A stretch of DNA of 49,599 nt from an uncultured Saprospiraceae bacterium (GCA_937139495.1 CAKZQC010000009.1:1-49599); one strand, 5' to 3'. Shown: positions 27,669 through 31,930, numbered from the stretch's first letter. Made by a program: numbers and translations. Notes: generated by a model not told the origin, from the letters alone.

Positions 27669-29384
27669 ATGACCTCGAAACAAACACAAATAGACACGAA
27701 AAAAATACAGACCTTAACTATTGAAAAAATATTGACTATTGTTGATGTTTTTCATGTAGCTCCTTATCAGAGGGGCTATCGTTGGGGGACAGAGCAGGTA
27801 TTGGCATTGCTCAATGATATTAATGGGAATGCAGATGGTTTTTATTGCTTACAGCCAATTGTAGTAGCTGACTTGTCTGAGACAGAAAAGCCTAAAAAAT
27901 GGGAATTGATAGATGGGCAGCAGCGCATGACTACTATCTTTTTGATATTGCATGCGTTGAAGGACGTTGAGGAAATATACCGTTTAGATTATCAAACAAG
28001 GAAAGAAACATGTACATACTTGGAGGAAATAGGAGAAAACTACGATATTGTTACTAACCTAGAAAAGAATGATGATATTAATAATATTGATAGTCGTTGT
28101 ATTCATAACAGTGTAACCGAAATAAATAAATGGCTGAAGGATAGTGAAATAGATAAAGAAATTTTCAAGAATAAACTACTCCAAAAAACGCTACTTATTT
28201 GGTATCCAGTTTATAATGCTGATGTCAATGCTGAACAAGTATTCCTTAATCTCAATAGTGGTAAAATTAGGCTCAATAGTTCAGAGCTGATTAAGGCACT
28301 TTTTATATTTGATATAGAAAAAGGCGATAAAAAAGACAAGAAAAGTTGGGAGTTGAAAGAAATTAAAAAACAGACATTTGCTCAAGAGTGGGACGCTATC
28401 GAAAAAGGACTACACAATGACAAATTGTGGTACTTCTTGCAGCCGCTACAATCCAATAATGCTCATACTCGTATTGGGTTGTTGTTTGATTTGATTAGTG
28501 ATAGAAAGGGCAATGAAAATCCACTTCATGCGTACCAATATTATAGTAAAGATTCAACAAAATTAGACTGGGATAAGGTCAAACAGCACTATCAGACGAT
28601 ACAAAGCTGGTACAATAACATAGAGCTTTTTCACCGTATTGGTTATCTGGTCAATAGCAGTGCGAAGCATACTTTTGGCGATTTGATGACAGATTTGAGC
28701 TCAAAGCAAAAAAGTGAAGTAAAGGCGGAATTGGAAGAGAAAATAAAGCAGCATTTTAAAAAGCGTACTGAAATAACAGATGGCAATATTGATGCGTTGA
28801 CTTATAGCAATAAGAAAGAAAAAACTCAATGTCAAGATGTACTGCTGTGGCACAATATCATAACGACAGAACAACTGCTAGTACAGCAGCGTTTTCCCTT
28901 TTATTTGTACCAAAAAGAAAAATGGTCGCTAGAGCATATCCACCCACAAAATCCAAATGAAAAGGATAGAGAAGAATGGCAAAAAGGATTGGCAGAGATG
29001 CTTGGAAAAGAAGGACAACTTACTGAAGAGCAAAAAAAACTAGCAAGTGAAAAAACAGTAGAAGAAAGGCAAAAGGAACTAGAGGAGGAACATGGTGAAC
29101 TGTTGAATACGATTGGTAATTTAGTACTGTTGGATAGGCAATCGAATAGTAGTTTATCCAATAATAATTTTCAAGAAAAAAGACGACTGTTACTGGATAG
29201 GGAAGGCGGCAAGAAAAACTATATTCCTGTAGCTACTTTGCACGCCTTCCTGAAGAAATATAATAATACAACAGAACCAGTCTCGTTGACGTATTGGACA
29301 GCAGAAGATTCGGCAGCTTATCAAGCTGATATAGAGAAAAGTATCAAAGACTTATTATCGCAAACTCCAAACCCTCAAAAGTAA
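27669..29384 (+). CDS. GmrSD-like type IV restriction endonuclease (DUF262 + DUF1524)
   Basis: N-terminal DUF262 motifs YQRGYRW and DGQQRMTT. C-terminal DUF1524 His-Me finger region WSLEHIHPQNPN ... GNLVLLDRQSNSSLSNN. Confidence 0.8.
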   Translation: MTSKQTQIDTKKIQTLTIEKILTIVDVFHVAPYQRGYRWGTEQVLALLNDINGNADGFYCLQPIVVADLSETEKPKKWELIDGQQRMTTIFLILHALKDVEEIYRLDYQTRKETCTYLEEIGENYDIVTNLEKNDDINNIDSRCIHNSVTEINKWLKDSEIDKEIFKNKLLQKTLLIWYPVYNADVNAEQVFLNLNSGKIRLNSSELIKALFIFDIEKGDKKDKKSWELKEIKKQTFAQEWDAIEKGLHNDKLWYFLQPLQSNNAHTRIGLLFDLISDRKGNENPLHAYQYYSKDSTKLDWDKVKQHYQTIQSWYNNIELFHRIGYLVNSSAKHTFGDLMTDLSSKQKSEVKAELEEKIKQHFKKRTEITDGNIDALTYSNKKEKTQCQDVLLWHNIITTEQLLVQQRFPFYLYQKEKWSLEHIHPQNPNEKDREEWQKGLAEMLGKEGQLTEEQKKLASEKTVEERQKELEEEHGELLNTIGNLVLLDRQSNSSLSNNNFQEKRRLLLDREGGKKNYIPVATLHAFLKKYNNTTEPVSLTYWTAEDSAAYQADIEKSIKDLLSQTPNPQK

Positions 29385-29390
29385 ATTCCC

Positions 29391-31889
29391 ATGATTAATG
29401 AATCACAAGCAGAACAGCAATATAATTTACGTAAATTATTAGGCGAATACACTATCGAAATTCCGCCTATACAGCGAGATTATGCCCAAGGTAGAGTAGA
29501 TGATACTAGAGTGACTACCATACGAGAACAGTTTGTAAGTACCTTGTTGGATACACTCCAAGAAGGTGATAGCTTAGGATTGGACTTTATTTATGGCAAG
29601 TCATTTAACAAAGAACTGCGACTGAATCAACAGAAAAAAGAAGAGGCACTCGAATCTCTTTTGCAGCCAATTAAGAAGTACAGCGAGGAGATAGATTGTA
29701 CCATTACCTACAAAATAACAGCTACATTAAATACAAAGGAATCGGGAGAAAAGGTACTTATTCTGTTGGACGGACAGCAACGAGTGACGACACTATTTTT
29801 GCTGCATTGGTGGGTCGGGGCAATAGCAAAAAAAGATCTAGCACTACTCAAAAAATTTAGTTATAAAACACGTAGCAGTTCTACAGATTTTTGTGCCAAA
29901 CTCATAGAGAACGCCAACACGGTTATTGCAGACCAGGAAAATTATAATAGTATAGAAGAAAATATTGTGGATCAAAGTTGGTTTGCAGATAGCTGGCTGG
30001 CTGATCCTACGGTACAGGGTATGCTAGTGATGTTGTGCGAGATAGAAAAGCAGGCTAAAAGCAAAGCATTAGATTATGAAAATGTGTGGGCAAATCTTGA
30101 CAAAATTACTTTCGATTTTTTTGATATGAAAGAACATGGCTTGTCTGATGAGTTGTATGTCAAAATGAATGCAAGGGGGAAGCACTTGAGTGATTTTGAA
30201 AACTTCAAAGCATGGTTGTTAAAGCATATTACTAAGAAAGAATACAGTATTGCCAATGAAAATTGGGAAACTAAACTAGATAAAGATTGGCTTGATTTGT
30301 TTTGGCGGGTAACTTCTGAAGAAAAATCGTTGGAATTAGAAGAGCAGATAAAAGTAACAGACAGCTATTACTTATCTTTTTTCAAGACGATGGCTTTGTA
30401 TGGCTATATCTTACGAGAGAATCCAAAGGATGAGGAAAGAGAAAAACAAGAAAAAAAGGTCTACGAGCTATTCACAATCAATCAATTTGTCCCAACCCAA
30501 ACCTATGAAGATTATGAGCTTTTTGATGAAAAAACTATCAATAATGCCTTTAAGGTATTAGAAGTTTTGAGAGATAAAACTAAACTTGATTTATTAGAAT
30601 GTATTGTGAAAAAATATTGGAAATTTCCTTTTACCAAGAAAGACGAATTCAAGTCATTTAAGAATGCCTTGCTTAAAGATTTTGGGGCGAAATCACAACC
30701 TCATCAGGTTTTTATATTTTCTATTGTTTCGCTTATGTTGAAAAAAGACATTACTGAAAGTAATAAAGCAGCATTGGAGCAACAAGTACGTTTACAGCGA
30801 AACTTGATTTATAATCAAACTATACAATCTAAAGAAAATGTTTTTGATGCCATTCAACAAATTAATGAATTTGATTATAAAATCTCATCGATAGCTAGGC
30901 TATTTTTTGCGACTCAAAAACAACGCGAAGAGGAAAAAAAGAAACTTGAATTATTAGAGAAAGATGACAAATGGTTGGATGCAATCGAAAAAGCAGAAAA
31001 TCACTTTTACTTATATGGACAGATTGGATTTTTGTTGGACTTGGCGAAGGTAGATGATGGCAAGTATGATTTGAAATTATTTGAAGACTACTACGGTAAG
31101 ATAGAATCTTTGTTAGAACTTATTGAAAAAGAAAAGTCTAATGAACACTTGTTACAACGTTATCTATTAGCTAAGTATGATGAGGAACAGATATTACAAA
31201 AATTTGGAGATTGGAGGCAAAGGAGTCGTATCTACAGTAATACACATGCTAACAATAGAGAAAGAAATGAAAATTGGCGTAATTTATTCAAGAATCAAAA
31301 GCTTAAAGAGATACTTGATGATTTTTGTGGGATAGCTACCGGTAATGATAACGAAGTTAGGATTAATGAAGCTAGAGCTATCATTAATGATTATGTACCA
31401 TCAATGCAGCCTAATAATTGGAAAGGGATGCTGAGCGAAAAATATAAAGCGTGTTTTGACTACATGAAGAAAAATATCATCATAATAGGTGACAATGAAT
31501 ATGAAGTAGAAATATTGAAGGGGAATGATTTTAGGTCAGACCATACCTCGCTATATCTGTACATGTTGTTCTTGGAGCTAACTAAAAATAAGGAAACGAA
31601 TAATTGGCTAAAAACAACTACGGTACGCCATGATTCTATCAAGGGCGATACTAACAGAAAAAACGATAATTATCCTTGGATACAATTAGAGCCAGAAGGT
31701 AAGCCAAATATATGGATTAGCTTTTTGTCAGATACAGATTCAGCTAGATTCATAATAGAATACCTGAACGAAGAGGAGGAGGTTCAAATATGTGAATGGA
31801 TACCTAATGAAGAAATTAATATCTATGATTATATAGCAAAAGCAGTTATTAGAATACAAGAAATAATAGAAAATCCACCAAACGAATAA
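29391..31889 (+). CDS. DUF262 domain protein with long uncharacterised C-terminal region (GmrS-like paralogue)
   Basis: N-terminal IPPIQRDYAQGR and LLDGQQRVTTLFLL are DUF262 motifs. The remaining ~550 aa have no recognisable motif. Starts 7 nt after the upstream gene. Confidence 0.7.
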   Translation: MINESQAEQQYNLRKLLGEYTIEIPPIQRDYAQGRVDDTRVTTIREQFVSTLLDTLQEGDSLGLDFIYGKSFNKELRLNQQKKEEALESLLQPIKKYSEEIDCTITYKITATLNTKESGEKVLILLDGQQRVTTLFLLHWWVGAIAKKDLALLKKFSYKTRSSSTDFCAKLIENANTVIADQENYNSIEENIVDQSWFADSWLADPTVQGMLVMLCEIEKQAKSKALDYENVWANLDKITFDFFDMKEHGLSDELYVKMNARGKHLSDFENFKAWLLKHITKKEYSIANENWETKLDKDWLDLFWRVTSEEKSLELEEQIKVTDSYYLSFFKTMALYGYILRENPKDEEREKQEKKVYELFTINQFVPTQTYEDYELFDEKTINNAFKVLEVLRDKTKLDLLECIVKKYWKFPFTKKDEFKSFKNALLKDFGAKSQPHQVFIFSIVSLMLKKDITESNKAALEQQVRLQRNLIYNQTIQSKENVFDAIQQINEFDYKISSIARLFFATQKQREEEKKKLELLEKDDKWLDAIEKAENHFYLYGQIGFLLDLAKVDDGKYDLKLFEDYYGKIESLLELIEKEKSNEHLLQRYLLAKYDEEQILQKFGDWRQRSRIYSNTHANNRERNENWRNLFKNQKLKEILDDFCGIATGNDNEVRINEARAIINDYVPSMQPNNWKGMLSEKYKACFDYMKKNIIIIGDNEYEVEILKGNDFRSDHTSLYLYMLFLELTKNKETNNWLKTTTVRHDSIKGDTNRKNDNYPWIQLEPEGKPNIWISFLSDTDSARFIIEYLNEEEEVQICEWIPNEEINIYDYIAKAVIRIQEIIENPPNE

Positions 31890-31894
31890 AAACA

Positions 31895-31930
31895 TAAAAA
31901 AAGAGCAATACACTTGAGGTGTATTGCTCT
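31895..31930. terminator. Bidirectional terminator between convergent DUF262 gene and tricorn protease gene
   Basis: agagcaatacac [ttgag] gtgtattgctct. The A7 run on the plus strand upstream of the hairpin gives a T-run on the minus strand. Confidence 0.75.

Follow-up and report, generated by a model that had tools for sequence, protein, structure and literature searches.

Why should a nuclease that already carries both halves of a GmrSD-like restriction enzyme be encoded immediately ahead of a second, larger DUF262 protein that has no nuclease domain? The question arises from a 49,599-nucleotide (nt) stretch of DNA from an uncultured Saprospiraceae bacterium (GCA_937139495.1, CAKZQC010000009.1:1-49599), which was analysed whole and is called the window below. 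An original prediction, made by a model from the sequence alone, had described two neighbouring genes within it, here gene 1 and gene 2, as a complete GmrSD-like enzyme followed by a DUF262 paralogue with a long C-terminal region of no recognisable nuclease type. We lean towards the reading that the pair is a two-component, heteromeric restriction system of the GmrSD superfamily, likely modification-dependent (Type IV), in which gene 2 would have a sensing or regulating role. The general kind, a two-gene GmrSD-type system with one nuclease-less DUF262 partner, was experimentally established in 2024-2025; the lineage of the present pair is widespread, and its partner protein is structurally distinctive.

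The open reading frames (ORFs) and motifs quoted for both genes are present. Gene 1 reads YQRGYRW from residue 33, DGQQRMTT from residue 82 and EHIHPQN from residue 422, then IGNLVLLDRQSNSSLSNNN, and a Pfam search recovers both DUF262 and DUF1524 in it and DUF262 alone in gene 2 (Table 1). Among 66-68 homologues the DUF262 motifs of gene 1, YQR (33-35), DGQQR (82-86) and F192xxxN196, are 97-100% conserved, and E422, H423, N484, N493 and K504 are invariant in 66 homologues; PF03235 is matched by all 66 of these, and PF07510 is detectable in 40. With both Pfam domains and with conserved nucleoside triphosphatase (NTPase) and His-Me residues, gene 1 holds up as a complete protein of the GmrSD/BrxU/SspE type, and the residues whose absence from both genes had been named as grounds for abandoning the prediction are conserved.

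The closest solved relatives of gene 1 in a profile search of the PDB are DndI (9jfl, E 6e-23), SspE (6jiv, E 3e-15) and BrxU (7p9k, E 4e-4), and the similarity to SspE that is visible at the level of sequence (E 1e-4) covers DUF262 only. The PADLOC models HEC-06 (Payne et al.), Orf5 and SspE match gene 1 and its homologues at the level of domains. These models are about 570 positions long, and their best stretches on gene 1 lie mainly in the first 100-170 residues; for HEC-06 (best E 1.4e-19) the best stretch is only aa 11-113 of a 569-position model, and the homologues behave alike. Because the matches are mostly confined to this N-terminal part, we place gene 1, as judged from its sequence, in the GmrSD family and in no named subfamily, and its relationship to the three models is likewise one of family, not subfamily. 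NCBIfam held no meaningful match for the gene 1 or the gene 2 protein.

Gene 2 has a DUF262 domain of a different cast. Its motifs are IQRDYAQGR at residues 27-35, DGQQRVTT from residue 127 (DGQQR at 127-131, nt 29769-29783) and KMNARGK at 258-264, and the signature (I)QRDYAQGR marks a distinct subfamily. In 58-67 homologues from many phyla, P25, Q28, R29, D127-G-Q-Q-R131, Y158, R161, N260, R262, G263 and K273 are invariant. Because Q28-R29, DGQQR and N260/R262/G263 are among these residues, the predicted nucleotide-binding pocket is conserved; selection thus acts on gene 2 to keep it able to bind nucleotides, as it would not on a duplicate in decay. An insertion of about 45 residues, mostly helical, lies inside the domain at residues ~75-120 (window 29610-29750); it is common to gene 2 and its close Bacteroidota homologues, and most of the family is without it.

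Relatives of gene 2 are numerous, with 5,692 of 8,000 candidates reaching E up to 1e-3. Homologues are mostly full length, about 700-870 amino acids (aa), and the best are full-length Bacteroidota proteins of ~830 aa that are annotated only as DUF262 proteins. One genome per species was scanned with an alignment of the gene 2 family, which gave 80 loci, and the ORFs of these loci were searched with each half of gene 1 and of gene 2 on its own. The loci span more than ten phyla: Bacteroidota, Clostridia and other Bacillota, Campylobacterota, Actinomycetota, Gamma-, Beta- and Alphaproteobacteria, Verrucomicrobiota, Spirochaetota, Chlorobiota, Acidobacteriota, Chloroflexota, WOR-3 and others. Wherever enough upstream DNA was available (75 of the 80 loci), a gene-1-type gene with DUF262 and DUF1524 halves lies directly upstream on the same strand, 75 times out of 75; 69 of these genes are whole, a contig end truncates 4, and 2 are split. 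Three loci (L012, L032 and L078) show the gene-1-type gene as two consecutive ORFs of ~300-440 and 170-300 aa, and such a split gene could be a frameshift, a pseudogene or a genuine separation of the DUF262 and DUF1524 halves.

The two genes are also closely coupled. The gap between them, measured in 67 pairs, has its mode at -4 nt and mostly falls between -11 and +16, so that overlap, usually of 1-11 nt, is the commonest arrangement. The distance matrices of the gene 1 and gene 2 families are correlated (Pearson 0.85, Spearman 0.65), and not one of 1000 Mantel permutations attains the observed value. Together with the adjacency, this correlation suggests that the two genes are inherited together and diverge together, and did not arise by a local tandem duplication. 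The pairing is not a product of chance, since the domain matches lie far above the Pfam thresholds and the pair recurs in many genomes. The original prediction had called the architecture uncommon; it is instead a widely distributed and strictly conserved module, found in all 75 informative loci, and two-gene systems of this kind, TgvAB of Vibrio cholerae and GmrS1/GmrSD2 of Escherichia coli ECOR17, had already been shown.

The pair often lies between hsdS and hsdR of Type I restriction-modification (R-M) operons, and six loci show it there (L007, L039, L055, L068, L079 and L081). The order hsdM-hsdS-gene 1-gene 2-hsdR-YgjP occurs in Vibrio alginolyticus, Psychrobacter (L055), Christiangramia (L007), Belliella (L039) and Gillisia (L068), and Kaistella (L079) has hsdM-hsdS-gene 1-gene 2-hsdR. 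The V. alginolyticus pair consists of a 602-aa protein (GmrSD_N and a weak GmrSD_C) followed by one of 821 aa (GmrSD_N). Plasmids and chromids in Pseudoalteromonas, Chryseobacterium, Paenisporosarcina and other genera carry the pair as well, each time annotated as two 'DUF262 domain-containing proteins', and no gene 2 homologue was found in phage genomes.

Two of these settings have additional neighbours. On a 108-kb plasmid of Chryseobacterium balustinum (NZ_CP033935, 7934-22030; L086) the pair stands beside a 3'-5' exonuclease, an AAA ATPase, a WYL-domain protein and two dynamin-like GTPases of the LeoA/HP0731 type, surroundings that may be a defence island. In Campylobacter (L003:9711-11189 and L015:8152-9567) a DUF2779 protein, RecB-like or RNase H-like, follows the pair on the same strand and may be a lineage-specific third component.

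In the window itself the ATG of gene 2 starts 7 nt past the final base of the stop codon of gene 1. The upstream neighbour is an E1-dehydrogenase gene (PF00676, E1_dh), whose terminator is likely the hairpin that precedes the pair. Because the spacer measures 6 nt, hairpin terminators flank the pair on both sides and the genes overlap in most homologous loci, genes 1 and 2 appear from their arrangement to be one expression unit or operon, which bears out the co-expression proposed from their spacing. The remark that the block is AT-rich was also correct: its GC content is 0.345, against 0.399 in the remaining window, and lies below that of all 185 other segments of equal length (minimum 0.371, mean 0.397, standard deviation 0.013). 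Low GC and the hairpins on both sides set genes 1 and 2 apart from the housekeeping genes around them as a unit of their own, inserted singly between the E1 dehydrogenase gene and a gene for a tricorn-like protease.

What remains to be explained is the long region behind the DUF262 domain of gene 2, which comprises a family-specific all-alpha region with a patch of conserved polar residues and a C-terminal alpha/beta sandwich domain (Table 1). That this region might be a diverged DUF1524 is not borne out: none of 58 members of the gene 2 family matches PF07510, even at E up to 1, and hhalign gives the gene 2 C-terminal profile a probability of 0.1% against the C-terminal profile of gene 1. Sequence and profile searches of the PDB with gene 2 returned nothing beyond DUF262, Foldseek found no match for the C-terminal region at E up to 1e-3, and neither a beta-beta-alpha-Me fold nor an H...N...N motif was found there. 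With Pfam, hhalign, PDB and Foldseek searches all null, the description of gene 2 as a DUF262 paralogue whose C-terminal region has no recognisable nuclease motif is upheld, and this half of the protein is without a relative among solved structures.

A phmmer search of the full library with residues 285-832 of gene 2 found 295 cluster representatives, 109 of them at E up to 1e-10. Since nearly all are 700-870 aa long, with the match starting at residue 240-300, the C-terminal module is found essentially only behind the gene 2 DUF262 subfamily. The helices that directly follow DUF262 may be the counterpart of the eight-helix 'M' or ParB-associated domain, which the Menshen study placed downstream of DUF262 in GmrSD, SspE, DndB and NsnA and linked to DNA binding. 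It is also conceivable, though we judge it unlikely, that the 550-aa C-terminal half, with the invariant patch N471/E515/K518/E536 in its all-alpha region and the hypervariable alpha/beta domain, is a new sensor or effector module, one that recognises a DNA modification or a phage protein outside the known GmrSD range or carries a second catalytic activity. If this were true, the lineage would be a mechanistically distinct two-component restriction system and not a re-arranged TgvAB.

Several candidate relationships for gene 2 were considered and rejected. The stretch ENH(536-538)...GQIGFLL could be taken for a compact His-Me finger; only E536 is invariant within the ENH motif, many homologues have another residue in place of H538 (EKN in Vibrio; ENQ and ENN elsewhere), the structural model appears to have no beta-hairpin there, and no profile or fold match supports the idea. 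An RNase III-like fold for the helical region was discarded as noise, the Dicer and RNase III chains returned by Foldseek having a probability of at most 0.23 and a template-modelling (TM) score of ~0.1. The 818-aa DUF262 protein in PDB entry 20yv is no solved relative either: it matches only around DGQQR (E 1e-3) and has a YQRQYSW-type motif instead of the gene 2 signature. Separately, 1 of the 58 scanned family members matches the bacterial RNA polymerase alpha C-terminal domain (PF03118, E 1e-14); the match probably comes from a 976-aa member in an uncultured Lachnospiraceae (L038:5700-8630), hinting at an added DNA-binding module.

We propose that gene 1 would act as the effector, its DUF262 NTP-binding or sensor domain being coupled to the DUF1524 His-Me nuclease, and that gene 2 would contribute a second DUF262 protomer together with a sensing or regulatory module made up of the helical region and the variable alpha/beta domain. 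A hetero-oligomer would form, held together by the DUF262 and helical parts of the two proteins, with the intertwined homodimers of BrxU and SspE as its model. Gene 2 would then supply sensing of the target or of infection, or NTP-dependent licensing, and the gene 1 nuclease would cut the invading modified DNA. We infer complex formation, the need for both genes and a modified-DNA target from the precedents of TgvAB and ECOR17 and from the dimeric, NTP-regulated BrxU and SspE. The hetero-oligomeric Type IV model fits because the gene 1 nuclease and both nucleotide pockets are conserved, the genes are obligately adjacent, coupled and co-varying, and the lineage occupies a Type I R-M niche and bears signs of horizontal transfer; the low GC of the block, its terminator brackets and the occurrence on plasmids speak for it as well. 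Of the roles that had been suggested for gene 2, that of a specificity or regulatory subunit would be the best reading.

Some observations weigh against such a two-component system. By a distant DNA search, 29 of 5,426 complete E. coli genomes carry a homologue of gene 2, and on the chromosomes of E. coli HUE1 (L084:6329-8851) and MIN6 (L085:6467-8851) this homologue, 794-840 aa long and belonging to cluster CLS_020, is orphaned. It directly follows an ISEc35 transposase in the interval from the O-antigen/his region to yecA, and neither of the two loci inspected has an annotated gene-1-type partner upstream; it could represent decay or a function of its own. In the window the pair is surrounded by housekeeping genes, not by a defence island, among the eight neighbouring genes examined. 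Single-chain GmrSD, BrxU and HEC-06 work alone, and since the pair is not orthologous to TgvAB or to the ECOR17 system, the extrapolation from them is by analogy only.

The single-chain enzymes also suggest an alternative, in which gene 1 would be a self-sufficient Type IV enzyme like Eco94GmrSD, BrxU or HEC-06, and gene 2 a dispensable accessory that might broaden specificity or serve as a decoy or shield against phage anti-restriction proteins (IPI*/Ip1-3). Gene 1 does hold every element of a stand-alone GmrSD, an inhibitor-countering role was raised for TgvA by Vizzarro et al. (PMC11411939), and the alpha/beta domain of gene 2 resembles protein-binding folds and is hypervariable, as an arms-race surface would be. 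However, a dispensable accessory would not be expected beside gene 1 in every informative locus across so many phyla, with overlaps of the translational-coupling type and with co-variation, and the nuclease-bearing protein alone is inactive in both doublet systems tested. We therefore regard self-sufficiency of gene 1 as possible but rather improbable. A simple tandem duplication, with gene 2 a degenerating copy or its C-terminal region a diverged DUF1524, is extremely improbable, as the conserved pocket, the co-variation and the null DUF1524 searches indicate.

Two further alternatives give gene 2 an activity other than sensing. It could be a second effector, its all-alpha region (R467, N471, E515, K518, E536) forming a new catalytic domain, such as a metal-dependent nuclease, driven by its own DUF262 NTPase. 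A few polar residues are indeed invariant in an otherwise divergent helical region of 400 residues, and all-alpha nuclease domains of RNase III and Dicer are among the best Foldseek matches, though at non-significant scores; we consider a second effector quite unlikely. Alternatively, gene 2 would not activate the gene 1 nuclease but restrain it as a toxic protein until infection, in the manner of an antitoxin or guard. GmrSD-type systems are toxic on over-expression, as GmrSD-ECOR17 and CT596 are, and tight coupling with co-variation would suit a toxin and its partner. Yet gene 2 is downstream of the nuclease gene and the larger of the two, a simple inhibitor would not need a complete NTPase pocket, and E. 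coli keeps gene 2 without gene 1, the opposite of the order of loss that addiction predicts. Restraint of this kind we hold to be very unlikely, and the two-component sensing or regulating system remains the reading that we prefer.

Table 1. Features of the gene pair and its boundaries, in window positions.
Feature	Position	Strand	Description or basis
Gene 1	27669..29384	+	ORF, 571 aa; GmrSD-like, DUF262 N-terminal and DUF1524 His-Me nuclease C-terminal
Gene 1 DUF262 (ParB-like NTPase) domain, aa 28-212	27750..28304	+	Pfam GmrSD_N/PF03235, E 1.2e-27
Gene 1 DUF1524 His-Me finger domain, aa 387-510	28827..29198	+	Pfam GmrSD_C/PF07510, E 2.8e-11
Gene 1 catalytic residues (predicted)	E422-H423 28932-28937; N484 29118-29120; N493 29145-29147	+	Conservation
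Spacer, gene 1 stop codon to gene 2 start codon	29385..29390	+	6 nt
Gene 2	29391..31889	+	ORF, 832 aa; DUF262 protein without nuclease domain
Gene 2 DUF262 domain, aa 14-277	29430..30221	+	Pfam PF03235 only, E 6.6e-19
Gene 2 family-specific all-alpha region, aa 285-700	30243..31490	+	
Gene 2 conserved patch in all-alpha region: R467/N471 (RNLIYN), E515/K518 (EExxK), E536/G543 (ENHxYxYGQ)	30789-31019	+	
Gene 2 C-terminal alpha/beta sandwich domain, aa 701-832	31491..31886	+	Most variable part of the family
Hairpin then T-run (AAGGCTAATT...AATTAGCCTTTTTTTT)	27600..27640	+	Read from sequence; upstream boundary of the two-gene unit
Bidirectional hairpin terminator, 13-bp stem	31902..31930	.	Between gene 2 and the convergent tricorn-like protease gene; downstream boundary

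Elsewhere in the window, two genes on the same strand are of separate interest. Positions 22247-24730 (+) encode an 827-aa bacterial protein resembling the Major Vault Protein, with its shoulder domain (PF11978, E 9e-31), a vault repeat and an SPFH/Band 7 domain. Positions 25683-26441 (+) encode a 252-aa protein in which TerB (E 8e-17) is fused to a C-terminal DnaJ J-domain (E 9e-12), with a hydrophobic segment at the N-terminus.

The pair also has enterobacterial relatives. One of the homologues in those 29 E. coli genomes, WP_072657381 (840 aa), is 28% identical to gene 2 over 793 aa (E 2e-53), a match that includes IQRDYAQGR and ENHxYxxGQ, and Silas et al. (2025, PMC12373910, Supplementary Data 6) list it in cluster CLS_020. 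The assignment of gene 2 to CLS_020 is meant as homology at the level of the family, not at the original clustering threshold. In Citrobacter europaeus a 585-aa DUF262 gene of cluster CLS_043 lies directly upstream of the CLS_020 gene with an 8-nt overlap (LA337_13945/LA337_13940). Gene order and sizes are as in the window, but the enterobacterial proteins are only ~28% identical to the Bacteroidota ones described here, and the likeness of CLS_043 to gene 1 is one of order and size. Silas et al. list the CLS_043/CLS_020 pair without describing it in the text. Because CLS_020 is without a nuclease domain, it is probably a member of one of the three 'two-gene systems' of Silas et al., and it may be among the 15 groups that were synthesised.

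The pair bears on a wider problem. Why some GmrSD-type nucleases need a nuclease-less DUF262 partner is a question raised in both TgvAB papers and in the ECOR17 study (PMC11411939, PMC11014532, PMC12373910), and the present lineage would offer an independent and phylogenetically broad solution of the same kind, with the opposite gene order and a much larger partner. It has a practical side too, as PADLOC-DB v2.0.0 holds no model for the gene 2 family. Because of this absence, and because both proteins are labelled 'DUF262 domain-containing protein', defence annotation of Bacteroidota, Clostridia, Campylobacterota and other genomes at present misses or mislabels the pair.

Among known systems, the single-chain enzymes Eco94GmrSD/GmrSD-CT596, BrxU (7p9k), SspE (6jiv), DndI (9jfl) and HEC-06 are single polypeptides or homodimers, unlike the pair described here. 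SspE and DndI depend on phosphorothioate (PT)-modification genes, and no sspABCD or dndBCDE genes were found in the eight genes examined around the pair; the window beyond these was not scanned with defence models. The two-gene systems are closer in composition. TgvA and TgvB (VC1767/VC1766), encoded in a Type I R-M operon on VPI-2 of V. cholerae, form a two-protein GmrSD-like Type IV system that acts against phages with glucosylated hydroxymethylcytosine (glucosyl-hmC); defence depends on each of the two genes, on the DGQQR motif of each protein and on the His-Me site of TgvB (H571, N602), and TgvA has DUF262 only (Vizzarro et al. 2024, PMC11411939; Gomez et al. 2024, PMC11014532). In E. coli ECOR17, GmrS1 (483 aa, upstream) and GmrSD2 (680 aa), of clusters CLS_003 and CLS_004, are described as a Type IV 'GmrS/GmrSD doublet' in which both genes are required, as is a His-Me/HNH active site present in one partner only; the same study reported that the 20 most common GmrSD clusters of enterobacteria include three architectures made of two genes (PMC12373910). 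The pair in the window has the makings of such a doublet, with adjacent co-oriented genes that both carry DUF262 and DGQQR and a single nuclease between them, and so do its counterparts in all 75 informative loci.

The synteny in Vibrio alginolyticus suggested orthology with TgvAB, and this was ruled out by BLASTP and by gene order. The comparison was made with residues 1-399 of TgvA and TgvB, as given in Table S3 of PMC11411939. These match gene 1 at 24% identity, over DUF262 only, with E 3e-8 and 1e-10, and gene 2 with E 0.01 and 3e-6, respectively; the portions of the TgvAB survey tables that were examined hold no QRDYAQGR signature. Equivalence with GmrS1/GmrSD2 was also excluded. The ECOR17 proteins, taken from Supplementary Data 5 of PMC12373910, fall together with TgvA and TgvB (E 2e-19 and 3e-20), match gene 1 over ~90-100 N-terminal residues only (E 5e-10 and 3e-7) and have no match to gene 2 at E up to 0.01.

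The likeness to TgvAB is nevertheless considerable. Both consist of two adjacent, co-oriented DUF262 genes with DGQQR, one of them nuclease-bearing, with ORFs that overlap or nearly abut, and the hsdS-hsdR niche in Type I R-M operons is shared by homologues of the gene 1/gene 2 pair, although the pair in the window itself lies outside such an operon, flanked by the E1 dehydrogenase and tricorn-like protease genes. In TgvAB, however, the DUF262-only gene comes first, whereas the nuclease-bearing gene is first here and in every homologous locus, and the partner here has 700-870 aa with a family-specific C-terminal region. The gene 1/gene 2 pair thus appears, from these sequence comparisons, to be a lineage separate from TgvAB and ECOR17, with the same composition and niche, the reverse order and a larger, different partner. 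Comparison with TgvAB could separate what is essential to such systems, which may be two DGQQR pockets and one nuclease, from what is specific to a lineage, such as the C-terminal module of gene 2.

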